A stretch of 64,000 nucleotides of DNA, from positions 5,922-69,921 of the forward strand of contig JAIPGM010000008.1 in the NCBI GenBank assembly GCA_021735655.1, read 5' to 3'. Under the pieces are notes generated by a model, which was not told where the DNA came from, searched no databases, and saw only the letters and a list, made by a program, of their open reading frames with translations. The stretch is from Candidatus Omnitrophota bacterium (lineage in GTDB: Bacteria > Omnitrophota > Gorgyraeia > Duberdicusellales > 4484-171). The position numbers were made by a program, and so were the translations under genes. How positions within the stretch are numbered: position 1 is the first letter of the stretch; every line of letters begins with the position of its first letter. Below, one piece after another: positions 3,010-62,680 of this stretch.

Positions 3010-4449
3010 ATGTTTGACGACAGAAGTAGAAAGTATAAGAATCAGTATGTGCCTTTAGATCCAGTCGATATTAATCTTTACAAGCCATTTATTGGTGAAA
3101 AAGCTTTAGATGAGATTAAGTATTTAGCTCAACCGTTACAAAATAAAGTTTGGGCCAATATTAACTCTACTTTTGTTGGTGGCGGCGTAGCTGAAATGCT
3201 TCAAAGCGTGCTTCCTTTTGCCCGGGGCTTAGGTATTGATGCTCGTTGGTTTGTTATTGAGGGGAGCGATGAGTTTTTTACGGTAACTAAGAAGTTTCAC
3301 AATCTCTTACAAGGTATTGATCAGCCAATTAGTCTTGAGGAGATTTTTCACGCTTATCTTGATACGATTGATGAAAATACCCGTAATGTTAGGGTTGTCG
3401 GACATATGGTTACCGTGCATGATCCTCAGCCGGCAGCCTTAGTTATGAACGGTAATGTTTATGGGCATATCTTATGGCGTTGTCATATAGATACCTCTAA
3501 CGCCAGCCGTCGAATTTGGCGCTTTTTACTTCCTTATCTTAATCAGTTCGAGGGAGCAATCTTTACGGCTATGGAGTTTGTTCGTGAAAATCTTCATATT
3601 CCTACTTATGAGATTAGTCCTTCCATTGATCCTTTGCGCATTAAGAATAAACAACGTACCGAAAAGGAAGCTTTGAAGGTTCTAGCTGATCTTTTTAATA
3701 AGCATAATATTGATCCTAAGCGTCCGATTGTTGCTGCTGTTTCACGTTACGATATTCATAAGAACCAAAAAGGGATTATCGAGTCCTTTAGGTTAATGAA
3801 GCAGAAAATAGCTAAAGGAATTAATCCGATTTTAATCATTATGGGTAATAGTGCAACCGATGATCCTGAGGGTAGCCAAGTTTATGAAGATATAAAAGAA
3901 GCGGTTGGAAGCGATAAGGATATTTATCTTCTTTTGAATGTTGAGAATAATGATGAGGTTGTTGGTTCGCTTATGTCGATTGCTAATTGCTTTGTTCATA
4001 TTTCAACCAAGGAAGGTTTTGGTTTAGTGGTGACTGAAGCAATGTGGCAGGGCGTTCCGGTAATTGGTAGCAAAATAGGCGGAATTCCCAAACAGGTTGT
4101 AAACGGTGTAAACGGATTTCTAACCGGACCCCATGAATATGCTCAAGTAGCTCGGGCAATGCAGGTTTTTCTAGAAAATAAAAAAATGCGTGATGCCTTT
4201 GGTCAAAGCGCTCGCAACCATGTAGCTCAGAATTTTCTTCTTCCGCATATGCTTAAGAAAGAATTGACTTTAATGCGCTATCACTTAGAAATTGATAATA
4301 AAATCCCTCCTTTTAGGCTTAACAAATTAACTTACAAAGAGATAAGCCAGGCGCTCTACGGCCGAACGGTTTGGCCTTTTTCAACTAATGATTTAAAGCA
4401 GCGAATTGAAGCAATTTGGGAAGGCCTTGAACCGCGGGATATGGATTAA
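3010..4449 (+). CDS. GT-B glycosyltransferase family 4 with extended N-terminal domain (trehalose/sucrose synthase-like)
   Basis: C-terminal GT4 signature FVHISTKEGFGLVVTEAMWQGVPVIGSKIGGIP; RBS aggagga upstream. Confidence 0.65.
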   Translation: MFDDRSRKYKNQYVPLDPVDINLYKPFIGEKALDEIKYLAQPLQNKVWANINSTFVGGGVAEMLQSVLPFARGLGIDARWFVIEGSDEFFTVTKKFHNLLQGIDQPISLEEIFHAYLDTIDENTRNVRVVGHMVTVHDPQPAALVMNGNVYGHILWRCHIDTSNASRRIWRFLLPYLNQFEGAIFTAMEFVRENLHIPTYEISPSIDPLRIKNKQRTEKEALKVLADLFNKHNIDPKRPIVAAVSRYDIHKNQKGIIESFRLMKQKIAKGINPILIIMGNSATDDPEGSQVYEDIKEAVGSDKDIYLLLNVENNDEVVGSLMSIANCFVHISTKEGFGLVVTEAMWQGVPVIGSKIGGIPKQVVNGVNGFLTGPHEYAQVARAMQVFLENKKMRDAFGQSARNHVAQNFLLPHMLKKELTLMRYHLEIDNKIPPFRLNKLTYKEISQALYGRTVWPFSTNDLKQRIEAIWEGLEPRDMD

Positions 4450-4454
4450 AATCT

Positions 4455-4853
4455 ATGGGAAACGATATTAATGAAAAACGTAAATATCTACGGTTGGATA
4501 CGGTTAATATCGTTAAAGTTACTCTTGATCGTAAGCTAATCAAGAAACCTTCGGAATTTGTTTCAGCCTTTACTAAAAATATCAGCGTTGAAGGCGTGTG
4601 TTTTTTGTCCGATAAGTTTTTCGAAAAGGGTAAACGCTTGCGTATTGATATGAGCCTTCCTGGAGATCCAAAACCTTTGCGCTTGAGAGGCAAAGTTTGC
4701 TGGAGCCGCTTGGTCAAAGATAAAAATAAAACTAATAAAGTTTTTGAAGTAGGGGTTGAACTCTTTACTGTTGGCGAGAGCGATTCAACTAGGTTTATGG
4801 GTTATGTTTGTCGCCATATGACCAGTCGTCTTGGTCGATATCTACATCTTTAA
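4455..4853 (+). CDS. PilZ domain protein
   Basis: KRKYLRLD (RxxxR) and NISVEGVCF (D/NxSxxG) motifs. Confidence 0.55.
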   Translation: MGNDINEKRKYLRLDTVNIVKVTLDRKLIKKPSEFVSAFTKNISVEGVCFLSDKFFEKGKRLRIDMSLPGDPKPLRLRGKVCWSRLVKDKNKTNKVFEVGVELFTVGESDSTRFMGYVCRHMTSRLGRYLHL

Positions 4854-4859
4854 AAAGAA

Positions 4860-5666
4860 GTGATTGTTAAGTTTTTTTTCTATATCTTTGTCGGTTTAGG
4901 GGTGCTTTTTCTCTATATTAAATACATTGAGAAAAAAAGTATCTTTTTCCCCGATAAAAATATTGATTTAACTCCCGAGCGGTTCGGGCTCAGTTTTGAA
5001 GATCTCTATTTTTTAACCAGCGATAAGGTAAGACTAAACGCTTGGTTTATACCGCATCCAGAAGCTGCAAAAACAATAATACTTTTCCACGGTAATGCCG
5101 GCAATAACTCTAATCGCTTAGAGAAGATTGCGCTTCTGCGCAAGCTAAAGATAAATATTTTTATGGTTGATTATCGTGGTTACGGAAATAGTCAAGGTAT
5201 TCCTAAAGAGAAAGGAATCTATCTTGACGCCCAGGCTGCTTATGGTTATTTAGTTAACCAGCGTAAAATTAATCCTGAAGATATTGTGCTTTACGGTGAG
5301 TCTCTAGGCGGGGTAGTAGCGGTTGATTTAGCTTCCACCAAGAAAGTGGCCGGAATCATTCTCGAGGGAACATTTTCTAGCGGCCGGGATATCGGTCAGA
5401 TAATTTATCCTTTTTTACCTAAGACAATATTGCCTAATATTTTTAACTCTTTGAGCAAAATATCGAAAGTTAAAGCTGAGAAACTTTTTATTCACTCTAA
5501 GGATGATCTAATAGTTCCCTTGGAATTAGGAAGGAAGCTTTATCAGGCAGCTTCTGGACCTAAAAAATTCATTACTGTGTCTGGCACCCATAATAGTGTT
5601 TTTATTGATTCGGAAAAAGAATACCTTAGAGCTTTAAGTGATTTTATTAGGGGGTTGGATGAATAA
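4860..5666 (+). CDS. Alpha/beta-fold serine hydrolase, membrane-anchored
   Basis: N-terminal TM helix; nucleophile elbow GESLGG; HGNAGN oxyanion region. Confidence 0.7.
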   Translation: MIVKFFFYIFVGLGVLFLYIKYIEKKSIFFPDKNIDLTPERFGLSFEDLYFLTSDKVRLNAWFIPHPEAAKTIILFHGNAGNNSNRLEKIALLRKLKINIFMVDYRGYGNSQGIPKEKGIYLDAQAAYGYLVNQRKINPEDIVLYGESLGGVVAVDLASTKKVAGIILEGTFSSGRDIGQIIYPFLPKTILPNIFNSLSKISKVKAEKLFIHSKDDLIVPLELGRKLYQAASGPKKFITVSGTHNSVFIDSEKEYLRALSDFIRGLDE

Positions 5667-34619: not shown

Positions 34620-36188
34620 TTAGTTTTTATTCATCCCGCTTATTAAAGTGGGATATTTTTTTCGGAGAGGTCGCATAGCCCGGTCGAGTGCGCGTGTTTG
34701 GAGTACACGTAGGCCCTTTGGGTCTCCAGGGTTCGAATCCCTGCCTCTCCGCCATTTTTGAGAGCGGGCAATTTTGGCAACTATACTGAACGGCTCGGAC
34801 CAATAAAATGAAAGGTTTTTGTCTTTCAAAGTATGGTTCGAGCCGTTTGTTTTTAAAAAATCCCTTTTTTGCGACAGGTTTCCTTGCCAAGCGACAGAAC
34901 CGGCTAAATTGCAAGAGGTAATGAAGTTTTTAGAGAGTTCGAGCCAGCCGCCGCTTTGTTTCTCTATCTCGCCAAGCCTTTCCTGTAAATCTTTCTTTTC
35001 ATTGAGCAATTTAGCCTTCTTATGCTGATATTCTTCCTGCGATATATCACGCTCAACATATAAATCAATAAGCCTTTCTATTTTGCCGTCAATTGAGCTA
35101 AGTTTATCTTGTAATTGGCGAGATAGAGAAAAAGAGGCTTTGCGATTAATCTCGGCTAATTCATCAAGGCGGTTAAAAATAACATCTTTACCATTATCAG
35201 GGATAAACACCTGCATTAAGGCTTTATTAACTTGCTCAAGCAAAGCCTCTTCTCGAAGAAACTTTTGCGAACAACGCCTGATTTTCTTGGTACAACGATA
35301 ATAAATATGGCCTTTTTGCATTTCAGCGGTAATTGAGCCACCGCACTCACTGCATTTAATAAAGCCTCGAAAGGCAAATTTAACTTGGTTACGCTGTTGC
35401 GGCCGAGTTTTTCGGGATAATACCTCTTGGCACCTATCAAAAAGTTTCTTCGAGATGAGCGGCGGATGGCTGCCTTCATACATTTCGCCTTTAAACCTGA
35501 TAACCCCATAGTAAAAAGGATTTTGCAACAGCCTTGCAAGTTTACTCTTATGGACAGGCTTGCCCTTTCTGCCGATTAAACCCCAGGTTTTAACCTCCTG
35601 CATAAGCTCATAAAGTGAAAAGTTACCCGTGGCGTAAACTTCAAAAATTTTCTTAATATATGGAGAACGTTCAGCATCAGGAATAATAACTCTGGTTTTA
35701 CGGTCATTAACATAACCTAAAGGAGCATAAATAGGCCATACGCCACGGCGTAGCTTTTCACGCATACCACGCCTAATATTCTCGGAAAGATTATCTATAT
35801 AATACTTAGATTGTCCAAAAGCGATAGAGAGCATAAACTTACCTTGAGCAGTGTTATCAAAGCGGTAAGTAGGAAAACGTAAGTCTTTTATAACCCCTAA
35901 ATCAACCAAATAGATAATCTTACCACCATCAAGAGAGTTTCGGGCAAGCCTGTCCGGATGCCATGCCAAAATACCATCGGCATTACCACTTTCTAACTGC
36001 TGCAAAACAAACTCGAAGATAGGCCGTCCGGGACACTTGGCTGATTTGGCTTCCGAAAATTCATCAACCACAAAGAGGGATTCTTTCTTGGCATATTCGC
36101 GCAACTCGTTTATTTGGGACTCAATACTAAGGACCTGCCTATCTTCGGCATCAGTAGATTTCCTGGCATATAAAAGATATTTTGGCAT
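34620..36188 (-). CDS. Large serine recombinase (integrase); annotated 3' end reads antisense through tRNA-Ser
   Basis: N-terminal YARKSTDAEDRQ..SIESQ with catalytic Ser; recombinase domain; zinc beta-ribbon CSECGG...YYRC; coiled coil. Last ~45 codons are antisense of the tRNA (GRDSNPG = T-loop antisense), so the true C-terminus is uncertain. Confidence 0.8.
   Translation of the reverse strand: MPKYLLYARKSTDAEDRQVLSIESQINELREYAKKESLFVVDEFSEAKSAKCPGRPIFEFVLQQLESGNADGILAWHPDRLARNSLDGGKIIYLVDLGVIKDLRFPTYRFDNTAQGKFMLSIAFGQSKYYIDNLSENIRRGMREKLRRGVWPIYAPLGYVNDRKTRVIIPDAERSPYIKKIFEVYATGNFSLYELMQEVKTWGLIGRKGKPVHKSKLARLLQNPFYYGVIRFKGEMYEGSHPPLISKKLFDRCQEVLSRKTRPQQRNQVKFAFRGFIKCSECGGSITAEMQKGHIYYRCTKKIRRCSQKFLREEALLEQVNKALMQVFIPDNGKDVIFNRLDELAEINRKASFSLSRQLQDKLSSIDGKIERLIDLYVERDISQEEYQHKKAKLLNEKKDLQERLGEIEKQSGGWLELSKNFITSCNLAGSVAWQGNLSQKRDFLKTNGSNHTLKDKNLSFYWSEPFSIVAKIARSQKWRRGRDSNPGDPKGLRVLQTRALDRAMRPLRKKYPTLISGMNKN
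34664..34754 (+). tRNA. tRNA-Ser (anticodon GGA), type II with long variable arm, CCA encoded
   Basis: Acceptor GGAGAGG/CCTCTCC; anticodon stem CGTGT/ACACG with loop TTGGAGT; variable arm TAGGCCCTTTGGGTCTCC; T-arm CAGGG-TTCGAAT-CCCTG; ends GCCA. Confidence 0.85.
34749..34780. repeat. Left copy of a perfect 32-bp inverted repeat bracketing the recombinase gene (ccgccatttttgagagcgggcaattttggcaa)
   Basis: Exact reverse complement occurs at 36323..36354; the left copy overlaps the last 6 nt of tRNA-Ser. Confidence 0.85.
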
Positions 36189-43290: not shown

Positions 43291-43839
43291 ATGAGAAGAG
43301 GATTTACCTTAATCGAACTAATCGTAGTCATTGCTATTATTGCTATCTTAGCAGCAATCATTGCCCCTAATGCTTTTAAGGCTATTGAGAAGGCGAAGGT
43401 CGCTAGAGCAATTTCGGATTTCAAAACAATAAAAACAGCCTCAATATCTCTTTACGCTGATACCGGAAAATGGCCTGATACGAATTGGGGTGATACCCGA
43501 ATTAAAGATAGCGGTTTATTTATTGATAACGGAGCAAGTTGGGATGGTCCATATTTAGAGAAAAATCCTGAACCGCATCCTTGGGGAGGAAGGTATATAT
43601 TTGAAAGTGAAGATGACTGGGCTAAAAGTCCCACAGAGCCTGCTAATGGAATTGATGAATCGCTTATTGATTTTGAAGATTACTGTATTTCTGGATCTGC
43701 AACAGGCTGTCCTGTTCCAGATAGCGCAGCAAAGAGAATTGATGAAGCAGTAGACGACGGGAATACTTCCTGGGGCGAATTTCGCCACGGTGGCGATACC
43801 TTGTGGCTTTTAGTCTGGGATGCTTTTGAGCAACCATAG
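43291..43839 (+). CDS. Type IV pilin-like protein (prepilin N-terminal cleavage/methylation domain)
   Basis: MRRGFTLIELIVVIAIIAILAAIIAPNAF class III signal with Gly-Phe cleavage site and Glu5; C-terminal WLLVWDAF. Confidence 0.75.
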   Translation: MRRGFTLIELIVVIAIIAILAAIIAPNAFKAIEKAKVARAISDFKTIKTASISLYADTGKWPDTNWGDTRIKDSGLFIDNGASWDGPYLEKNPEPHPWGGRYIFESEDDWAKSPTEPANGIDESLIDFEDYCISGSATGCPVPDSAAKRIDEAVDDGNTSWGEFRHGGDTLWLLVWDAFEQP

Positions 43840-47005: not shown

Positions 47006-48568
47006 GTGTTAAAATTTACCATCATGAAAGGCATTCTTTATTGTCGAGATATTTCTTCAAATAAATCAAAATCGCTCTTCTTTCCCCACAAAACCACCAC
47101 TAAATTACAAGATGTCTATGCTTCTGACTGTCCTTTGGTCATTTTTGACGAAAAATTTATCAAAAAAAGTAAAAAGTTAGATAATTCGCGCCTTAAAAGT
47201 AAGGTTTGTTTTGTGCATTTTACCCAAGAGCATAAGGATAATTTAAAAATAGTTAAACAGCTTGGTTTTTTTGATTACTTTAGTGATCAAGATTCAAAGA
47301 GTTTTGTTTCTTTCAAGTTTCTAAGGGCCGAGAAGCTAATTAAACTTAATCGAAAGGTGTATAGCCTAGAGAAACAAGTTAATAAAAAAGATGCTGAAAT
47401 CGAAAACATCACTTTGATCGATCCGATAACCGGGTGTTATAACTGGCGGTATCTTTCAAACCGGATAACTCAGGAAATTAATCGAGCTCGTCGACATTTC
47501 TACAGCATTTCTTTTATTGCTGTCGATATTGATCATTTTACCAGGATCAATGAACTCTATGGCGTAAAAGTAGCCGATACGATTATTAAGGAATTTGTCG
47601 GTATTTTAGGCAAAGCATTGCGGACTGAGGACATTCTGGCCCGCTGGCGAGAGGATGAGTTTTTTATTATTGCGCCTCACTTAGAAGCCAAAGATAGCTA
47701 TATGGTTGCTAAAAGAATAGGCGAGAAAATTAGCACACATAAGTTTAAATATCATAAAGTTGCGATATGTCTAAAGGCTAGTTTAGGCGTTACCACTTCT
47801 CCTGAAGATCATATCTTTAGTGTTCGCGATATTGTTAATACTTTGAATGGTTGTTTAGCTTCGGCTAAACGGAAGGGGGGCAACACGATTGTTTTATATT
47901 CTCAGGCAGATACTACCTTGGCGCCGGAAAAGCACAAGAAGGCTAATACGTCTGAATTACAGGGTAAAATAGACAAGATGAACAAGGTGATGAATCGAGA
48001 TTTGCTTGATACTATTTATGGGTTTGCTAGGACAATCGAGGCAAAAGATTCTTACACCGGAAAACATGTAGAATATACTGCTGGTTTGGCCGAAGAAGTT
48101 GCAAAAGCCTTACGGTTATCAACCAAAGAAGTGGAAGATGTTAGGCATGCTGCGGTTTTGCATGATTTAGGAAAGATTGCTATCGATAAAAGCATTCTTT
48201 CTAAAGCAGGTAGCCTTAGTCCCGAAGAAAGGGAGTCGATTAGGACTCATCCGGCTATTGCTGCAGAGATTTTACGCGAGATACATGGTCTCAGAGGGGC
48301 TATCCCGGCGATTCTTTATCATCATGAGCGTTATGATGGAAAGGGCTATCCTTTGGGGTTAAAGGGCGATGATATACCTTTAAATGCTCGGATAGTTGCC
48401 GTTGCTGATGTCTATCAGGCGCTTATCTCTGATCGGCCGTATCGTAAAGCTTATGTTAAGAAAAAGGCTTTAGAGATTATTAAATCAGAGGCTGGCAAAC
48501 AGTTTGATCCTAAAATAGTAAGAATGTTTTTACGAATTATCAAGAGGATCGATGCGCAAGAAAGATGA
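47006..48568 (+). CDS. Degenerate GGDEF domain + HD-GYP phosphodiesterase
   Basis: GGDEF fold (DPITGCYNWRYL...FIAVDIDHF...) with signature replaced by RWREDEFFII; C-terminal HD-GYP VLHDLGKIAI and HHERYDGKGYPLGL. Confidence 0.75.
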   Translation: MLKFTIMKGILYCRDISSNKSKSLFFPHKTTTKLQDVYASDCPLVIFDEKFIKKSKKLDNSRLKSKVCFVHFTQEHKDNLKIVKQLGFFDYFSDQDSKSFVSFKFLRAEKLIKLNRKVYSLEKQVNKKDAEIENITLIDPITGCYNWRYLSNRITQEINRARRHFYSISFIAVDIDHFTRINELYGVKVADTIIKEFVGILGKALRTEDILARWREDEFFIIAPHLEAKDSYMVAKRIGEKISTHKFKYHKVAICLKASLGVTTSPEDHIFSVRDIVNTLNGCLASAKRKGGNTIVLYSQADTTLAPEKHKKANTSELQGKIDKMNKVMNRDLLDTIYGFARTIEAKDSYTGKHVEYTAGLAEEVAKALRLSTKEVEDVRHAAVLHDLGKIAIDKSILSKAGSLSPEERESIRTHPAIAAEILREIHGLRGAIPAILYHHERYDGKGYPLGLKGDDIPLNARIVAVADVYQALISDRPYRKAYVKKKALEIIKSEAGKQFDPKIVRMFLRIIKRIDAQER

Positions 48569-49010
48569 AGCCTACATGTATGAAGCTCTCAAACAGGCTC
48601 ACTATGCATTTGATGAAGATGAGGTGCCGGTGGGGGCAGTTATTGTTTGTAACGATAGAATAATCGCTAGAAGCTACAACCAGGTCGAAAAATTAAAAGA
48701 TCCTACCGCTCATGCTGAGATGATTGCTATTACTCAAGCGGCAAGTTTTTTAAAATCAAAGTGGCTTAAAAAATGTTCTTTGTATGTTACGATAGAGCCG
48801 TGTTCGATGTGTGCCGGAGCCTTAGTCTTAAGTCGCATCGATAAGGTTGTTTTTGGCGCAAAAGATCCAAAGACTGGAGCTTTCGGGTCAAAGCTAGATG
48901 TAAATGCCTTAAGTCTTAATCATAAGTTAAAAGTTAAAAATGGTATTTTGGAGAATGAATGTGCCATGATTTTACAGGATTTTTTTAAAATTAAGAGGGA
49001 GACAAAATGA
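48552..49010 (+). CDS. tadA: tRNA-specific adenosine deaminase
   Basis: HAEMIAI and PCSMCAGAL zinc-binding CDA motifs; about 150 aa. Confidence 0.85.
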   Translation: MRKKDEAYMYEALKQAHYAFDEDEVPVGAVIVCNDRIIARSYNQVEKLKDPTAHAEMIAITQAASFLKSKWLKKCSLYVTIEPCSMCAGALVLSRIDKVVFGAKDPKTGAFGSKLDVNALSLNHKLKVKNGILENECAMILQDFFKIKRETK

Positions 49011-49666
49011 GTATGAAGAGCCTTAGGGTAATTTTTATTACTATCGTAGTTTTTGTTTTTTCTTTAGAATATGCTCAAGCTCGTAACCGTCAGGGTGGCG
49101 GTAGCTCATCAGGCTCAGGTTATACTCCAAGAACTCGCACCAAGGTGAGTTCTCAGTCGTCACAAAAGAATAGCAATAAAGATAAGAGCAAAAGTGTTAA
49201 TAAAGAAGAGGGGAGTGAATCTTTGAAGTGGGGAAAGTCAGATGATTCGATAAAGGTAAAGTCAAATCCTCAGCAGAAGGAAAATATACTAAAGCTTAAA
49301 GAAGATGCAAAAGCGATTAAAGATAAATCAAATATAACCCAAGATCAGAAGGATAAAATAAAGTCTGATTTTTCAGCTATTATGGATGGCGCACAAAAAC
49401 CCAGCGAGGAATCAGTTAATAATCTGGTTGGTGATCTTACCAGGGCAGCAGAAGACGGTAAGCTAGGCCCAAAGGAGGCTATGAAAATTTCTGAAAGTGT
49501 TTCTGGGGTTTTAGAGAGTGCAAATATATCTGAAGAAGAAGTTTGGGCGCTTAAAAAAGATGTTGAGGCTGTTGCTGAGGCCTCTAACCTTAATCAGCAA
49601 GACACAGACTTAATAATAGCTGACGTTGAGGCTATCATTGATACAGCTAGAGCTAATAGTAAGTAG
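49007..49666 (+). CDS. Secreted low-complexity protein
   Basis: Signal peptide; Ser/Gly/Lys-rich N-terminus; acidic helical C-terminus. Confidence 0.35.
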   Translation: MSMKSLRVIFITIVVFVFSLEYAQARNRQGGGSSSGSGYTPRTRTKVSSQSSQKNSNKDKSKSVNKEEGSESLKWGKSDDSIKVKSNPQQKENILKLKEDAKAIKDKSNITQDQKDKIKSDFSAIMDGAQKPSEESVNNLVGDLTRAAEDGKLGPKEAMKISESVSGVLESANISEEEVWALKKDVEAVAEASNLNQQDTDLIIADVEAIIDTARANSK

Positions 49667-49685
49667 TAAGTGTATGAGGTACCCT

Positions 49686-50255
49686 ATGAAAAAATCATTT
49701 ACCCTAATCGAACTAATTGTAGTTATTGCAATCATTGCCATTCTTGCCGCAATCATCGCCCCAAATGCTTTTAAAGCTGTTGAGAAGGCGAAGATTTCTG
49801 AAGCAATAGCCGATGTTAAAACTTACAAAACTGCCATTGGTACCTTATATGCTGATACCGGACATTGGGTAGTAGAAGGCGCTGTTCCTCCCCTAGGTGA
49901 CATTATCTATCCAGATTCTGCTAATAATGATTTAATAACTAATCTTAATGGTTATTTTGGTTGGGATGGACCTTATGTTCAAAAGATTAAAGCCAAAAAT
50001 CCCTGGAAGGGTTGGTATGTTTTTCAATCTAATGATGTCGCAAGAGGTTTACAATCAGAAATTTGGCTTGATTTTGAAGATGCTTGTTATCCGCTAGAGG
50101 GTAGTGTCAGCCTTGATTGCCCTATACCGGATAAAGCCAAAAATAAAATAGATGCTACCATTGACGATGGAGATCCCTCGGACGGAAATGTACAAGAAGG
50201 ACTAGGAGGGTCAGCCGGTGATTTTTCTTGGTTTTTAGTTTGGGATGCATACTAA
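49686..50255 (+). CDS. Type IV pilin-like protein
   Basis: MKKSFTLIELIVVIAIIAILAAIIAPNAFKAVEKAK; C-terminal WFLVWDAY. Start trimmed from the track ORF (49626) to the Met preceded by an RBS. Confidence 0.75.
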   Translation: MKKSFTLIELIVVIAIIAILAAIIAPNAFKAVEKAKISEAIADVKTYKTAIGTLYADTGHWVVEGAVPPLGDIIYPDSANNDLITNLNGYFGWDGPYVQKIKAKNPWKGWYVFQSNDVARGLQSEIWLDFEDACYPLEGSVSLDCPIPDKAKNKIDATIDDGDPSDGNVQEGLGGSAGDFSWFLVWDAY

Positions 50256-50337
50256 GTTGTAACTACCTAACGGTTAATCTACTTTCTAACCTCTTTGCGA
50301 AATTTATCAAAAATGCTATGATTAAAAATCATTAATA

Positions 50338-50380
50338 GAGGGGGGTGCCGAGCTCGGTTTAAGGCGGCGGTTTGCTAAAC
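50338..50380 (+). pseudogene. Truncated tRNA-Ser(GCU) 5' half (acceptor through anticodon loop), copy 1
   Basis: gagggggtgccgagctcggtttaaggcggcggtttgctaaacc matches positions 1-42 of the intact tRNA at 52829 with 2 mismatches, then diverges. Confidence 0.7.
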
Positions 50381-50674
50381 CTTTTCGACTCTTTTTCAAT
50401 AAACTTAATCCTTTTTCAATTTATCCTCTAAAATATTAACTTTTCATACTTATTGCTGTTTGTAGGAATTTTGTATGCTTATATCTGTTTGACTATTTTT
50501 TGGACACCGACCCCCATCCCTTCCAATTTGGTCGCAGATATAGTTATAAGGACTGTTTTTGGTGCCTGAATTAGATTTTGGGAAGCCCGTTCTGAAACCG
50601 TTTTTACAAAGAGGCATTTTTGCTGTTATAGTGGTCCTTTTTAGGTGTTATACTTTAATGATAGGTTTAATTGT

Positions 50675-51376
50675 ATGAAGAAAAATATTTTTTCCTTAAT
50701 AATTTACCTTTGTTTGTCTTTGGCTTCGGTAACGGTTTATGCTGGTCCTTTTGAGAAATTGACTAGTAGTGGAAGACCATCCGTTAACTCAGGCCAAAAT
50801 AAGTCAACTCAAGCATCACATCCACCTGCCAGAAGTAATCGTTTACTTGAAAGGAGTTCAACAAAAGCACAAAGTCCAAAAACAGCAATTAAGGTAAAAG
50901 GAGGCTTGGGGGGTTCTAGTTTTAGGCATACAGTTCAGGAAGGGCTTAATAAAGTATCTAAAGTGCATCCGGAATTGCTCGATGCGAAGGGTGTTGTCAT
51001 ACTTCGTGAGAAACTAGAGCCTGGCGAAGCTATGCGGGCCTATACTGCGGAGAATTTAATAGCTGTGTCACCCCGAACCGCTTCGGAAGATAATAAGTAC
51101 CTTTTTGCTGCAGCTTTGGGGCATGAGTTAGATCACGTATTAAATCCTCAAAAAGGTGAGGTTTTAGATCAACAGGGACGCATAAAACTGAAAGTGGCGG
51201 TAGCTATGGAAAAACGAGCTATCGGCAAGGAAATAGATATTCTTTCTGCGTACTTAGAAGTAGCCAGTAAAAAAGACCGTGAGATAATGCAACTGCGGAT
51301 AAATTTCCTGAAAGCTGCGGATGGGACGCATAATAAGGAAAGGTATGAAAGGCTTGGCATTCCTTTTGTCGATTAG
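50675..51376 (+). CDS. Secreted hypothetical protein
   Basis: Signal peptide MKKNIFSLIIYLCLSLASVTVYA; no motif. Start trimmed to the internal Met. Confidence 0.35.
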   Translation: MKKNIFSLIIYLCLSLASVTVYAGPFEKLTSSGRPSVNSGQNKSTQASHPPARSNRLLERSSTKAQSPKTAIKVKGGLGGSSFRHTVQEGLNKVSKVHPELLDAKGVVILREKLEPGEAMRAYTAENLIAVSPRTASEDNKYLFAAALGHELDHVLNPQKGEVLDQQGRIKLKVAVAMEKRAIGKEIDILSAYLEVASKKDREIMQLRINFLKAADGTHNKERYERLGIPFVD

Positions 51377-51523
51377 CGGTAATGTAAAATAAGTCTGACT
51401 TTATTTTTTTCTGACCCTCATCCCAATTGACACATTTTTCTTATTCGACCAATTCCTATCAAAGTAGTATCTATTTTCTTTTCAAAACTTACCAAAAATG
51501 CTATAATTAAAAATCATTAATAG

Positions 51524-51568
51524 ATGAGGGGTGGCCGAGCTCGGTTTAAGGCGGCGGTTTGCTAAACC
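51524..51568 (+). pseudogene. Truncated tRNA-Ser(GCU) 5' half, copy 2
   Basis: gatgaggggtggccgagctcggtttaaggcggcggtttgctaaacc is identical to the intact gene over about 40 nt. Confidence 0.7.
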
Positions 51569-51831
51569 TCCATAGTCCTTTTTCAATAACCCAATAAATT
51601 CAATCCTTTTTTAATTTATCTTCTAAAGTATTAACTTTTTATACTTACCGCTGTTTGTAGGAATCTTGCATGTTTGTATCTGTTTGGCTATTTTTTGGAC
51701 ATTTTCTGGTCACCGACCCTTACTCTTTCTGACTTGGTTATGGGTATAGTTATAAGGGCTATTTTCGGCACTTGAAGTAAATTTTGGAAAAATCTATTTT
51801 TAGTGGTAAAATATTCCAAAGGAGGTATTTT

Positions 51832-52416
51832 ATGAAAAAATCATTTACTTTAATCGAGTTAATCGTAGTAATCGCTATAATTGCTATCTTAGCAGCAATC
51901 ATCGCTCCCAATGCATTTAAGGCTATTGATAAAGCAAAAGTTTCAGCTAGCCTGGCTTATGCAAAGAACATAAAAACAGCAATTTTGTCTTTGTATTCCG
52001 ATACTGGGCATTTTTCGGGATGGGTGGCCGGCATGACGGCTGGTCAATATAATTATGTGAAACTTGACGATGATTATAACCCTAGTTGGCAGCCTAGCAA
52101 TTTATTGAGTGATGAATCTGGTTGGACTGGTTGGGATGGTCCCTATATGGAGCAACTGACAGGTCGACATCGATGGGGCGGAACTATCATGCTTCTCTAT
52201 TATCCTATTCCAGCATCTTGGGCTAATGGTCTTGGTCTTTATCGTTGGTTTCCGTGCTATGGGAATTCAGCTAATAATTGTGGAGTATCTGAGACGAATT
52301 TAAAGAAAATAGATGCTACCGTAGATGATGGTGTACCTACCACTGGTAACCATAGAGTCTATTATGACGCCACGTATTCACAATGGTATTCGCTAGAAAC
52401 GTTAATTAACTTCTAA
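51832..52416 (+). CDS. Type IV pilin-like protein
   Basis: MKKSFTLIELIVVIAIIAILAAIIAPNAFKAIDKAK; RBS aaaggagg. Start trimmed from 51784. Confidence 0.75.
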   Translation: MKKSFTLIELIVVIAIIAILAAIIAPNAFKAIDKAKVSASLAYAKNIKTAILSLYSDTGHFSGWVAGMTAGQYNYVKLDDDYNPSWQPSNLLSDESGWTGWDGPYMEQLTGRHRWGGTIMLLYYPIPASWANGLGLYRWFPCYGNSANNCGVSETNLKKIDATVDDGVPTTGNHRVYYDATYSQWYSLETLINF

Positions 52417-52776
52417 TGATAGGTTCAGTCGATAGCGGTAAAGAGGAAAATATAGGTTTTTGTTTAATAACTAGGGGAGATTGTTAACATGAGAATATTT
52501 TTATTATTAGCTATAGTTGCGATAATGGCTTGTTCTTCGCAAGATAAGAGGTCACCGGTGGATCAATTAGAACCAGAGCTCATTGACCCTGCGGCTGGGC
52601 TTGACAATATGTAACCTTAGAATAACATTAAAGGTATGATGTCTTTAATGAACCAACGGTTTCTTTATACCTTCTTTTTAACTATAGTATTAAAGATATT
52701 TTAGGAAAACTTTTTAGCCTAATTGACACATTCTTTTCTATTTGACCAAGTCTTATCAAAGTATGATCCATCTTCT

Positions 52777-52811
52777 AAATTCTTTCCAAAATTAACCAAA
52801 AATGTTATAAT
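52777..52811 (+). promoter_or_regulatory. Candidate promoter of tRNA-Ser(GCU) with extended -10 (tgttataat)
   Basis: TGn-TATAAT at 52803..52811. The same ccaaaaatgctataattaaaaatcattaataga block precedes both truncated tRNA copies. Confidence 0.4.
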
Positions 52812-52828
52812 TGAAAATCATTAATAGA

Positions 52829-52924
52829 GGAGGGGTGGCCGAGCTCGGTTTAAGGCGGCGGTTTGCTAAACCGTTGTACAGGTGAAAACCCGTACCTGGG
52901 GTTCAAATCCCCACCCCTCCGCCA
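52829..52924 (+). tRNA. tRNA-Ser (anticodon GCU), type II
   Basis: Acceptor GGAGGGG/CCCCTCC; 3-bp D-stem; anticodon stem GCGGT/ACCGT with loop TTGCTAA; long variable arm gtac...gtac; T-arm TGGGG-TTCAAAT-CCCCA; GCCA end. Confidence 0.8.
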
Positions 52925-52940
52925 GTTTTATAATAAATAA

Positions 52941-53897
52941 ATGGAAATACTACTTAATAGCCTAATTTTTATAGTCGGTCTTGCTATATTAATAATCAGC
53001 TCTGACTGGCTTATCCAGGGTTCAATTAAATTATCTAGCCTTCTAAGATTAACCCCTTTATTTGTAGGATTAGTTCTAGTCGCTTTTGGTACATCTACTC
53101 CTGAAGCTGGAGTTGGAATAGTCGCCGCCATAAGAAATTATAAAGAGATAGCCTTGGGCAATGTTATCGGAAGCAATATTTGCAATATTGGGTTGATTTT
53201 GGGTCTATGTGCTTTCGTTAGGCCGTTAAAGATAAATAAGTCTATTCTTAGAAGAGAGTTTCCCTTTATGCTTCTTGCTACGGTTTCACTTTTTTTAATG
53301 AGTCGGGATTTATTAATTAGCCGGCTTGACGGATTAATATTTATATTTGGCTTTATTGCTTTTTTAGTTTTTTCATATAAAGGAGCAAGGCAGTCTTTTA
53401 TCGGCGATGAGATAAATAATTTTAAATTTAAAGGTTTGTTTAAGAGATACAATTCACCTATTGCAATCACCGTTTTATCGCTAATTTCAATTTTAGGCAT
53501 AGCTATTGGAGCAAAGCTTATGGTTGATAAAGGAGTGGTCTTAGCAAATATTTTTGGGGTGAAGCCTTGGTTGATTGCAATTACTGTTTTTGCCGTTGGC
53601 ACTTCGCTTCCTGAATTAGCGGCATCATTGACTGCGGCTTTGAAGAAAGCGCCTTCAATTAGTGTTGGCAATATCGTCGGAAGCAATATTTTTAACATTT
53701 TACTGATTTTAGGGGTGGTTTCTTTAATCAGACCGATACAGCTAGAGGCTTCAATGCTAAAGTTTGAATTTCCGGTTTTGCTTATTTTTAGCTTTACCCT
53801 TCTTATCATGATGAAAACTAGGCACCAAATAAGCCGTTGGGAAGGGCTGTCGTTATTTTTAGGCTATATTGGTTTTATTTTTTTATTGATTCACTAA
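52941..53897 (+). CDS. CaCA-family Na+/Ca2+ exchanger-type membrane transporter (YrbG-like)
   Basis: Two alpha-repeats GNVIGSNICNIGLILG and GNIVGSNIFNILLILG. Confidence 0.75.
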   Translation: MEILLNSLIFIVGLAILIISSDWLIQGSIKLSSLLRLTPLFVGLVLVAFGTSTPEAGVGIVAAIRNYKEIALGNVIGSNICNIGLILGLCAFVRPLKINKSILRREFPFMLLATVSLFLMSRDLLISRLDGLIFIFGFIAFLVFSYKGARQSFIGDEINNFKFKGLFKRYNSPIAITVLSLISILGIAIGAKLMVDKGVVLANIFGVKPWLIAITVFAVGTSLPELAASLTAALKKAPSISVGNIVGSNIFNILLILGVVSLIRPIQLEASMLKFEFPVLLIFSFTLLIMMKTRHQISRWEGLSLFLGYIGFIFLLIH

Positions 53898-60615: not shown

Positions 60616-61018
60616 TCCCCGGTAGCTCAGTTGGTAGAGCGCATGGCTGTCAATGAGGCCGCAACTTTTAGAGCCGAAGGCGAATAAAAGCTGCATGGCC
60701 GAATTGGTTCCGCCGAGTTATGGTGAATTTCTTTCATAAATTCACCATATATTTAGCGAGGCGGAACTAAGTATGGCAGCTCTCATGAGAAATCATGAGA
60801 TGATAAGCGGGCTAATTCAGGGAACCCTAAGTCTCGTAAGAGATATGGCAATCCTGAGCTAAATGTGCAAGATGAAAATCTTGCGCTAAATGTGCAGAGA
60901 CTATATACCCGCCTCCTAAAGCCAAAAGCCATGGAGATGAGATAGTCCAGTCCTTAAGGAAACTTAAGGGGTAACTGTAACCATGATGTCCGAGGTTCGA
61001 GCCCTCGCCGGGGAGCCA
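60616..61018 (+). tRNA. tRNA-Asn (anticodon GUU) interrupted by a 327-nt group I intron in the anticodon loop
   Basis: Exon 1 60616..60650 (TCCCCGGTAGCTCAGTTGGTAGAGCGCATGGCTGT); exon 2 60978..61018 (TAACCATGATGTCCGAGGTTCGAGCCCTCGCCGGGGAGCCA). Joined sequence closely matches E. coli tRNA-Asn as recalled. Intron has P/Q/R/S-like blocks (aattcagggaaccctaag; aatcctgagctaaatg; cagagactata; gagatagtccag) and terminal G. Confidence 0.75.
60651..60977 (+). ncRNA. Group I intron (self-splicing ribozyme candidate) within tRNA-Asn
   Basis: Conserved R (cAGAGACUAuA) and S (GAUAGUCCag) elements able to form P7; 5' splice site after U; 3' terminal G; P9-like hairpin ccttaagg-aaac-ttaagg; no ORF inside. 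Confidence 0.7.
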
Positions 61019-62680
61019 GTTAGACGTCTGACAGCGGATTTCTTCGCTGTCGGATTCGCATAGATCAAATAGCCCTGTGTCGGGTTGACGCCCATACAGG
61101 GCTATTTGTATTTTGGTGGGGCTTAAAACGGCTTTGTGCAGGACGAGCCTTACCATATCCTTCTGCCGATAAGGTTTTATCTTATCGAAAAGGTCGGAGA
61201 ATCGGCTCAAAGCCAATGTTACAAGCTCCTGACTTATCGATTCCCGCTCGATTTCCTTGATCATGGCCTCAAGCGAGGCTATGCCGGTTTCTATCTCTTT
61301 CCGGCGCTGGCCAAGCTCTGCAAGTTTCTCTTTCAGGAATATACTGCTGTCATCCGTGGCCATGGCAGTCCATTTATTCATTATTCCATCGGCAAAGGCC
61401 TTGACCTCGGCCAGTTCTTTTTGAAGGTGCGTTCTCCGGTATTTAAGCTGTGGTAGTTCCTTCATGAGCTTTTCATTGGTATGTTCTATCAGTTTTTGCA
61501 TAAGGCCGGAATCGGATGAGAGATATTTTATTCTCTCGATTATGATACGCTCTATCTCATCGGCCGGGAGTTTAAATCTGCAGGCTTTATCTTTGCATAC
61601 ATAGAAAAAGTATTTATTGCCACGTCTGCCTGTTCCGCAGGTTCCTTCCATCTGACCACCGCATTTACCGCACCACAAAAGCCCGCCATTAAGGATATAA
61701 GCGTGTTTTATTGTCTTTGTGCCGTTGTGTTTCGTTTTGGTGTTTTGTTTGATGAGCTTCTGGACCTTGTAGAAGGTCTCCTCATCGATTAAAGGCTCCC
61801 AGACCGCCTTGACGGTCCTGTAACGCTCTTTTTCCTGTAGCTTAGACTGATCCTGCAACCTTTTCTTTTTATTGATCTCTTTAAGCCCGATATAAGCGCA
61901 ATTGACGAGTAGTTGTTTTATAGATGATCTGCCGAATTTCTCGGGAGTGCGGAATTTGCCTCTGCGAGAGGTGTACCCTTTGGTGCGATAGCCATTATCA
62001 TTAAGGGCCCGGGCAGTTCCCATAAGCGATCCGCACTCAAGGTATTTCTTAAAGGCAAACCGCACGAGGGCCTTTTCTTTTTCGTTTACTATTGGATAAC
62101 CTTTGCGTTTTGGATCGAGGTCATATCCCAGCAAATGCCCGCCGTTCCAGAGTCCACGCTCGGCCCGGGCAAGACACGCTTCTTTATTGCGCTCGGAGGT
62201 TTGTGTCCGCTCGAATTCTGCGAGAGCCATCATTATTGTTATGAATAACTTGCCTTGAGAGGACGTGGTATCGTAGTTCTGTTTTAAGCATACGAATTCG
62301 ACATCGTATTTGGTGAGGATCTCGAAGAAGTTCAAGAAATCCCTGACTGAGCGACTTATCCGATCAAGTGCGGTACATATAACGGTATTTACCTTGCCTG
62401 ACTTGATATCTTCAAGAAGCTGGGTGAATTCGATGCTCCGGAAGGAATCTTTGCCAGATACGCCTTTCAGGATATACCGGCCGGTTTCGACCCATCGTTC
62501 CCCGCAGGCAGTGGTCTTATATTCGATATGGGCCTGCAGGCGCTGTAGCTGATTGGTAAGCGAGCCCTCGGGATTTCGGGCCTGCTTGTCGGTGCTTACC
62601 CTTATCACAAATCCGCAATTCTTTATTATCTTATCTTCCATAACAACACAACCCCTATAACAATACTTGGCACAAGTCAA
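60827..62680 (-). CDS. Large serine recombinase (integrase); 3' end reads antisense through tRNA-Asn exon 2 and intron
   Basis: N-terminal FVIRVSTDKQ with catalytic Ser; zinc ribbon CGKCGG...YVCKDKAC; coiled coil. Last ~90 codons overlap the att-like IR and tRNA, so the true C-terminus is probably shorter. Confidence 0.8.
   Translation of the reverse strand: MTCAKYCYRGCVVMEDKIIKNCGFVIRVSTDKQARNPEGSLTNQLQRLQAHIEYKTTACGERWVETGRYILKGVSGKDSFRSIEFTQLLEDIKSGKVNTVICTALDRISRSVRDFLNFFEILTKYDVEFVCLKQNYDTTSSQGKLFITIMMALAEFERTQTSERNKEACLARAERGLWNGGHLLGYDLDPKRKGYPIVNEKEKALVRFAFKKYLECGSLMGTARALNDNGYRTKGYTSRRGKFRTPEKFGRSSIKQLLVNCAYIGLKEINKKKRLQDQSKLQEKERYRTVKAVWEPLIDEETFYKVQKLIKQNTKTKHNGTKTIKHAYILNGGLLWCGKCGGQMEGTCGTGRRGNKYFFYVCKDKACRFKLPADEIERIIIERIKYLSSDSGLMQKLIEHTNEKLMKELPQLKYRRTHLQKELAEVKAFADGIMNKWTAMATDDSSIFLKEKLAELGQRRKEIETGIASLEAMIKEIERESISQELVTLALSRFSDLFDKIKPYRQKDMVRLVLHKAVLSPTKIQIALYGRQPDTGLFDLCESDSEEIRCQTSNWLPGEGSNLGHHGYSYPLSFLKDWTISSPWLLALGGGYIVSAHLAQDFHLAHLAQDCHISYET
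61061..61101. repeat. 12-bp perfect inverted repeat with 17-bp spacer (candidate recombinase att core)
   Basis: aaatagccctgt-N17-acagggctattt, 43 bp downstream of the tRNA-Asn 3' end. Confidence 0.5.

Follow-up and report, generated by a model that had tools for sequence, protein, structure and literature searches.

A stretch of 64,000 nucleotides from a metagenome-assembled genome (MAG) of Candidatus Omnitrophota (assembly GCA_021735655.1, contig JAIPGM010000008.1, positions 5,922–69,921 of the forward strand; hereafter the window, within which coordinates are counted) raises the question of why the promoter and 5′ part of one transfer RNA gene, tRNA-Ser(GCU), should stand three times in a row with other genes between the copies. 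The initial annotation had described these three copies, with only the third intact, and alignments, blastn, ARAGORN and Rfam recovered them where it had placed them. We conclude that positions 50382–52872 probably consist of two serially inserted miniature integrative elements that carry no integrase and that entered in the rare reversed orientation, replacing the 5′ part of the tRNA gene. Judged from sequence, both are best explained as members of a family of tRNA-integrating elements from Omnitrophota and related MAGs of low GC content.

First, the units were aligned. The promoter and the first 44 bases of tRNA-Ser(GCU), which correspond to tRNA positions 1–41, are present in three copies on the same strand:

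50284–50381, plus strand: copy A, truncated.
51469–51568, plus strand: copy B, truncated.
52773–52872, plus strand: copy C, the sole copy that runs on into an intact tRNA.
52829–52924, plus strand: the intact tRNA-Ser(GCU), called by ARAGORN and matching the Rfam tRNA family with 53.7 bits.

ARAGORN and Rfam call copy C alone as a tRNA and leave copies A and B uncalled. The repeats span from about −55 to tRNA position 41. By blastn, unit A (50292–50584) matches unit B (51477–51790) at 78.4% identity over 315 columns (E = 3e-70), the sequence around copy B (51422–51568) matches that around copy C (52718–52872) at 84.5% (E = 1e-44), and A (50284–50384) matches C (52773–52875) at 88% (E = 4e-31); no further copy of the repeat was found by blastn within the 64-kb window. 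Each copy divides into a promoter block and a tRNA 5′ part, which in copies A and B ends in a junction of the type expected at an attachment site (attL and attR denote the left and right sites; the bar marks the break):

50284–50339, plus strand: promoter block A, with −35 TTGCGA and −10 TATGAT with TG at 50295–50322 in the promoter scan.
50340–50381, plus strand: displaced tRNA-Ser(GCU) 5′ part A, an attL-type junction ending …GCTAAACC|T by alignment to the intact gene.
51469–51524, plus strand: promoter block B, with TTTTCA-17-TATAAT at 51479–51507, brought by element 1 in the favoured reading.
51525–51568, plus strand: displaced tRNA 5′ part B, with G1→T, ending …GCTAAACC|T.
52773–52828, plus strand: promoter block C, with TTTCCA-17-TATAAT at 52783–52811, now serving the intact tRNA.

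Copies A and B match the intact tRNA up to position 41. The halves had initially been taken to end inside the anticodon loop; the Rfam alignment places the end of identity three bases beyond it, in the 3′ strand of the anticodon stem. An extended −10 promoter-like site is retained in all three copies (promoter scan), block A is 82–84% identical to blocks B and C, and the promoter blocks differ by about 16%. Lesions are concentrated at the start of the tRNA: 5′ part A carries two 1-nt deletions, in the acceptor and position 8–10 region, so that the lesion count in the acceptor strand is higher in the outer copy A than in B, with C intact. After these lesions the next 35 nt are identical in all three.

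Next, we compared the sequences on either side of the repeats. The regions following 5′ parts A and B resemble each other, as do those preceding promoter blocks B and C, and we refer to them as the L (left) and P (right) arms of two elements, element 1 (50382–51568, 1187 nt) and element 2 (51569–52872, 1304 nt):

50382–50584, plus strand: L arm of element 1, containing TGGACACC at 50501–50508, 120 nt after the junction.
51419–51468, plus strand: P arm of element 1, with half-sites TTGACAC (51427) and TCGACCA (51445).
51569–51790, plus strand: L arm of element 2, with tandem half-sites TGGACATTTTCTGGTCACC at 51696–51714, 128 nt after the junction.
52716–52772, plus strand: P arm of element 2, with half-sites TTGACAC (52723) and TTGACCA (52742).

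The L arms following A and B diverge ahead of the cargo start codons. The conserved leader described initially is real, and its length and identity, given as about 250 bp and 75%, are corrected here to 200–220 nt and 78%. The P arm adds about 50 nt upstream of the promoter block that are common to B and C and not present in A. Each unit is laid out as L arm, cargo, P arm, promoter and tRNA positions 1–41, and the sharing of the L arm by A and B and of the P arm by B and C is the pattern predicted by two nested attL/attR pairs. Between the two elements the arms differ by 16–22%; the motif TGGACACC occurs once in the 64-kb window.

The anatomy of the locus and of the relatives described below suggests a mechanism. 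A small tyrosine recombinase would exchange strands in the anticodon stem-loop, the block of identity ending at position 41, and the attachment site on the element (attP) would comprise the right arm, the promoter, tRNA positions 1–41 and the left arm. Integration would displace the resident promoter and 5′ part upstream as a dead half-gene, and the promoter and 5′ part brought by the element would fuse to the resident 3′ part, leaving the tRNA functional. Copy A would have been displaced by element 1, copy B would have served the tRNA until element 2 displaced it in turn, and copy C would now be in service. Element 1, farther from the tRNA, would be the older of the two, and the gradient of decay from A through B to the intact C fits insertion in that order. 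On this scheme, positions 1–41 of the intact tRNA (52829–52872) would derive from element 2 and the remainder would be the resident 3′ part, and promoter block A is probably the resident chromosomal tRNA promoter.

The two elements carry unrelated cargo, all of it on the strand of the tRNA:

50675–51376, plus strand: cargo 1, a 233-amino-acid (aa) ORFan from the list of open reading frames (ORFs), with a signal-peptide-like N terminus by inspection.
51832–52416, plus strand: cargo 2a, a type IV pilin or type II secretion pseudopilin-like protein of 194 aa (PF07963, partial TIGR01710 match), called pilin 2 below.
52489–52614, plus strand: cargo 2b, a 41-aa ORF with a lipoprotein-like signal (…IMAC), from the ORF list and a weak gene call.

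These agree with the downstream genes as first described, an ORF with a signal-peptide-like N terminus and a protein with a prepilin N-methylation domain. Cargo 1 matched no Pfam or NCBIfam family and retrieved only itself in two whole-database searches, and its single-sequence AlphaFold model was unusable (pLDDT 41). It contains the string HELDH, a pattern like the HExxH of zinc metallopeptidases, which has neither family nor structural support. Cargo 2b likewise had no match in Pfam or NCBIfam. Pilin 2 has more than 1300 homologs, and the named ones among the 120 listed are proteins of Omnitrophota or Omnitrophica MAGs; exact-protein look-ups of pilin 2, the 233-aa protein and the hits P0002 and P0003 returned no record. 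The silent cassettes of pilS-type antigenic variation are promoter-less, 5′-truncated pilin copies that donate sequence to an expression locus. Such a role was ruled out for pilin 2, which is full length, with an N-terminal methylation motif, a ribosome-binding site and promoter-like sites upstream. Each displaced promoter faces the next cargo, with no terminator-like site predicted between them, and the displaced tRNA promoter probably contributes, as far as its position indicates, to expression of the cargo of the next element. Promoter capture, offered initially as an alternative to insertion, is thus a consequence of the insertion geometry and not its rival.

To place the locus among its relatives, the tRNA 5′ half was used to scan one genome per species, which returned 25 loci, mostly in Omnitrophota MAGs. 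The genes flanking the elements in the window are as follows:

48552–49010, plus strand: TadA-like deaminase, the conserved left flank (tblastn 64–82% in contigs L025, L021, L019 and L016).
From 49007, plus strand: a 219-aa low-complexity ORF with a signal-peptide-like N terminus by inspection and no match in Pfam, between TadA and copy A.
49686–50255, plus strand: pilin paralog 1 (N_methyl match), outside the repeat-bounded units.
52941–53897, plus strand: Na+/Ca2+ exchanger (PF01699), the conserved right flank, syntenic in L025, L022, L021 and L019.

The gene order GGDEF-HD, TadA, tRNA-Ser(GCU) is common to the window and to L025, L021, L016 and L019; the exchanger comes next in L025, L021 and L019, and LemA is present in L025 and L021. 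In L025, L021 and L016 the gap between TadA and the tRNA is only about 80–220 nt, that is, an empty site, whereas L019 has 1.9 kb of unrelated sequence there and the window 3.8 kb. The short gap in relatives against 3.8 kb in the window indicates that the cassettes are lineage-specific insertions into a variable interval. The comparison with related genomes that the initial annotation had called for found an empty site and not three conserved copies. The block 49007–50255, with the 219-aa ORF and pilin 1, is also absent between TadA and the tRNA in the relatives. The suggestion that the locus is a hotspot accumulating pilin genes holds in part: one of the two cassettes carries a pilin, the other does not, and pilin 1 (44% identical to pilin 2) lies outside the units. 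As a separate observation, three pilin paralogs that are 43–47% identical lie within 9 kb (43291–43839, 49686–50255 and 51832–52416), and the two pilin homologs of L025 sit upstream of its GGDEF-HD gene.

We then looked at where the same break point recurs. The break …AAACC| is found in window copies A and B, in contigs L013, L027 and L029–L032 and, within a tRNA-Arg gene, in L033; matches from metagenome and viral collections were picked by a half-tRNA pattern requiring a base other than G after ACC. L013, a 3.2-kb contig from another low-GC MAG, is itself a repeat-bounded unit that starts with the tRNA-Ser(GCU) 5′ part ending ACC| and ends with the sequence preceding that tRNA. It encodes a PEP-CTERM lectin-like protein, an HNH protein, a 274-aa ORF with a signal-peptide-like N terminus and, directly before the tRNA leader, the C-terminal half of a tyrosine recombinase (PF00589, E = 1.5e-17). 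Contigs of a sister MAG break in the same repeat, L017 at its end and L003 at its start. Homologs of the L013 integrase fragment led to L033, from an Omnitrophota MAG, in which a displaced 5′ part of tRNA-Arg(CCU) (2590–2637) and the intact tRNA (5274–5350) bound a 2.68-kb unit with the break …CCTAAACC|. Here an integrase remnant of 103 aa adjoins an insertion sequence (IS) and runs into the tRNA. Within 5001–5350 the frame of the remnant enters tRNA-Arg(CCU) and takes the TAA of the anticodon loop as its stop codon; the IS (rve transposase, 3838–4898) lies just upstream of the remnant.

Full-length integrases of 245–249 aa, each preceded by an HTH_17 (PF12728) gene, were found on L035 and L038–L041, where they end 12–23 nt upstream of tRNA-Arg(ACG) or tRNA-Met(CAU) on the same strand. 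An integrase directly upstream of the tRNA means that an element of this family sits on the 5′ side of the tRNA gene and has to bring the tRNA promoter and 5′ part with it. Because only 12–23 nt separate the integrase stop from the tRNA, the tRNA promoter is presumably embedded in the 3′ end of the integrase gene. Five contigs of high GC content (62%), the metagenome contig L027 (Ga0209811_10024340) and the IMG/VR viral contigs L029–L032 (17–44 kb), carry the promoter and tRNA-Ser(GCU) positions 1–41 with repeated arm motifs, ATTGTGGTA or GGGATAC, on either side. Four of these contigs also have an integrase gene or fragment next to that block, and none was found on the short stretch of L030 that was covered; the integrase has about 380–435 aa on three of these contigs (the open frame of L029 has 435 codons) and is a 61-aa fragment on L027. 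Their layout suggests temperate-phage attP sites of the reversed type. L027, L029 and L032 have the integrase upstream of the site and on its strand, and L031 has it downstream and on the other strand.

A short arm motif connects the window with this family. The 20-mer ATGGACACTATTTGGACACC is found on both arms of L033, and close variants of it occur on both arms of L013 and within the integrase 3′ end of L035 and L038. Tandem TGGACAC follows the junction at 120 nt in L033, 117 nt in L013, 120 nt in window A and 128 nt in window B (first half-site). In the P arms of the window, TTGACAC and then TYGACCA lie 141 nt (B) and 149 nt (C) before the junction, and the corresponding distances are 136 nt in L033, 134 nt in L038 and 112 nt in L035. 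The TGGACAC motif is translated as MDTIWTP in L033 (5179–5197) and as WTLYGHQ in L035 (2868–2886); these different reading frames indicate that it is conserved as DNA and not as protein. We infer that the TGGACAC-type half-sites are putative arm-type integrase-binding sites. Beyond this short motif, shared with the family, blastn found no significant similarity between the window arms and those of the high-GC phages or of L013, and the motif had no match when sought in viral contigs. Other leads carried little or no weight: minus-strand ORFs in the leaders (55 and 43 aa) were treated as non-coding, their frame not being conserved; enrichment of k-mers such as TTTTGG was weak and post hoc and was not used as evidence; and an AATCATTRATA box near the tRNA start, similar to the sequence around the stop codon in the L035 and L038 integrases, recurs at two unrelated sites in the window and is kept as a lead only. 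Together, the empty sites, the recurrence of the break point elsewhere and the shared arm motif support the initial proposal of serial site-specific insertion by elements bringing their own promoter and 5′ half.

Could a promoter-tRNA segment have been duplicated locally in tandem, or multiplied by unequal crossing-over, with the intervening genes replaced later and no site-specific recombinase involved? Tandem direct repeats can come from replication slippage or unequal exchange, units and host have the same GC content, and paralogs of pilin 2 lie nearby. Duplication cannot, however, make the first tRNA(1–41)|L junction; the cargo is unrelated between the units; and the identical break recurs in unrelated lineages beside integrase genes, with the arm motif shared with those elements. 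We regard this origin as highly improbable.

Several points weigh against serial insertion. No excised form or polymorphic site was seen for either element, so that present-day mobility is unproven, and the 64-kb window contains no integrase-like sequence. The relatives with the empty site are distant (52–82% protein identity), and the comparison with them reaches the whole interval and not each cassette. Promoter A resembles the element-borne promoters (82–84%) and not those upstream of the tRNA in relatives, and for this reason A may not be the original chromosomal copy. The 219-aa ORF and pilin 1 have no att relics that would explain their presence. The arm motif was spotted post hoc, after inspection of the data, and the half-sites in the window P arms (TTGACAC, TYGACCA) match it only approximately. 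Last, exact-pattern scans with the L arms gave no matches in the viral and metagenome collections and so no second copy of this element type.

As the source is a MAG, the array might instead be an assembly artefact in which strain variants with single cassettes were concatenated at the shared 36–44 nt, and short-read contigs from the same run do break at these repeats. Against this, the G1→T change of the middle copy would impair a tRNA in service and is what a displaced copy should show; the independent Logan contig L028 links displaced part B to cassette 1; and the three repeats differ around an identical core, so that reads can be placed. An artefact of this kind is therefore very hard to credit. 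Contigs L003, L013, L014, L036, L037, L001 and L028, from different assemblies, start or end inside the tRNA 5′ part, which is consistent with repeated 5′ halves breaking assemblies. In L004 (WFRI01000002.1, 1–450), two intact tRNA-Ser(GCU) genes stand inverted, with identical upstream sequence, at the contig end, which is probably an assembly artefact.

Another possibility is that the tRNA half and leader form a selected functional RNA, such as a processed leader, a tRNA-half regulator or a split or intron-containing tRNA. The perfect conservation of 35 nt of the half, the intact promoters and the presence of a group I intron in another tRNA of the window would suit such a role. Yet blastn found no copies of the 3′ half, Rfam gave no match and no intron in 49500–53100 at E ≤ 10, and the acceptor strands carry lesions; the conservation of the half is also explained by earlier service in a working tRNA. 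A split tRNA or one interrupted by a group I intron was rejected on the same grounds. The L arms matched no Rfam family, either at the gathering threshold or at E ≤ 10, and transcripts of tRNA half plus leader folded no better than shuffled sequence (z = +1.4 and +1.0), so that a structured RNA or riboswitch was dropped; we give a selected RNA of any of these kinds very little probability.

Serial insertion being preferred, the elements may have been small when they moved or may have become small afterwards. Both lack an integrase, their homology ends at the same boundary, and they share an architecture and near-equal size; a single ancestor already without integrase is therefore the probable source of both. 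If so, and as far as comparison of the two sequences allows, the elements would be non-autonomous cassettes that need an integrase in trans and that have a variable cargo slot of about 0.8–0.9 kb. The units could alternatively be dead remnants of two ordinary integrase-carrying elements that lost the integrase independently, fossils that were never mobile when small. The decay of integrases is common in the family, with only a C-terminal half in L013 and 103 aa next to an IS in L033, and the integrase is missing from the window. But in both elements homology ends at one and the same point, immediately before TTGACAC (51419 and 52716), and the arms are of equal extent, and two independent deletions rarely share end points; the 16–22% divergence of the arms, moreover, suggests long separate histories after the integrase was lost. 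Between a cassette system and fossils, independent decay remains a serious alternative, if a somewhat unlikely one.

How do these elements compare with known systems? Elements that enter tRNA genes nearly always replace the 3′ end, and the reversed mode has been treated as a curiosity. Integration at the 5′-distal part of tRNA genes is on record (PMC6563490, citing Zhao & Williams 2002, J Bacteriol 184:859) and, compared with the 3′ part, is described there as ‘considerably less frequent’. As in those integrators, the tRNA 5′ part is replaced in the window, the promoter is supplied and the displaced fragment is a 5′ fragment, and the integrase adjoins the att site in the relatives found (L013, L033, L027, L029, L031 and L032). 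The window elements differ from them in being 1.2–1.3 kb long, in having one or two genes and no integrase, in standing in tandem and in belonging to the phylum Omnitrophota; the integrase of the family, at about 245 aa, is small, and arm sites overlap its 3′ end. Tandem arrays formed by accretion at tRNA genes are also known, and the tools that map them accept only elements with an integrase and a length of at least 2 kb (PMC7192596). The window has in common with them elements separated by tRNA-fragment repeats and, in the favoured reading, serial integration into a regenerated att core. Known arrays involve 3′ fragments, and their elements have integrases and measure at least 2 kb; neither applies to the window, and given these requirements arrays like the one in the window would be missed.

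Cis-mobilizable elements (CIMEs) have lost integration and transfer genes and kept attL and attR (PMC6323972). Like them, the window units consist only of cargo ORFs, lack integrase and transfer genes and have an att-type repeat at either end; the putative attL and attR sites of the window have an identical 35-nt core and both arms, with the displaced halves lesioned outside the core. CIMEs are defined by integrative and conjugative elements (ICEs) that mobilize them in cis, and no ICE was found at the window locus: there were no ICE-type genes among the locus ORFs scanned against Pfam, the other window ORFs being listed and not annotated. Integron arrays resemble the window in having small single-gene units in one orientation at one site, expressed from a promoter outside the cassette, with the integrase in trans (the last two being predicted for the window). 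The window, in contrast, has no IntI, attI or attC hairpin, its site is the tRNA anticodon arm, and each unit brings a new promoter, whereas integron cassettes share one Pc. An integron proper was rejected, there being no integrase in the window and no strong inverted repeats, and the leaders folding no better than shuffles. The temperate-phage attP sites (L029–L032 and L027) have the same tRNA, break point and reversed logic as the window, but differ in their high GC content, larger integrases and other arm repeats (ATTGTGGTA or GGGATAC) and show no arm similarity.

A bolder and rather doubtful reading is that the locus is a working tRNA-anchored cassette platform, an analogue of an integron, with a small tyrosine recombinase encoded elsewhere in the genome. 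Single-gene cassettes would be inserted into the anticodon arm of tRNA-Ser(GCU), each switched on by the promoter that it displaced, and each would bring a fresh promoter and 5′ half, keeping an essential tRNA alive and driving the next cassette. If true, such a platform would let Omnitrophota gather and express surface or secreted proteins such as pilins.

Three features appear to be new here: routine use, by a family of small integrases, of the reversed mode on several tRNA species; arm sites that lie within the 3′-terminal part of the integrase gene; and integrase-less derivatives of 1.2–1.3 kb with conserved arms and a variable cargo slot, stacked at one tRNA. At least four tRNA species appear to be used, in MAGs of Omnitrophota and similar low-GC uncultured bacteria, with the taxonomy confirmed for some contigs only. 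Such elements would escape island finders whose criteria are an integrase, a length of at least 2 kb and a 3′ fragment, and truncated tRNA 5′ parts ending at position 41 offer a simple screen of genomes. With displaced tRNA promoters facing the cargo, newly acquired surface genes could be expressed at once. Repeated 5′ halves would also account for assemblies of these organisms breaking at tRNA genes.

Finally, two other tRNA genes of the window are of note. At 60617–61020 (plus strand), a tRNA is interrupted at its anticodon region by a group I intron (RF00028, 79.2 bits, 60725–60969); the anticodon region GTC suggests Asp, and the gene is not called by ARAGORN. A 522-aa ORF at 34620–36188 (minus strand) overlaps tRNA-Ser(GGA) (34664–34754, plus strand) at its end, and the bounds of this ORF are probably mis-set.

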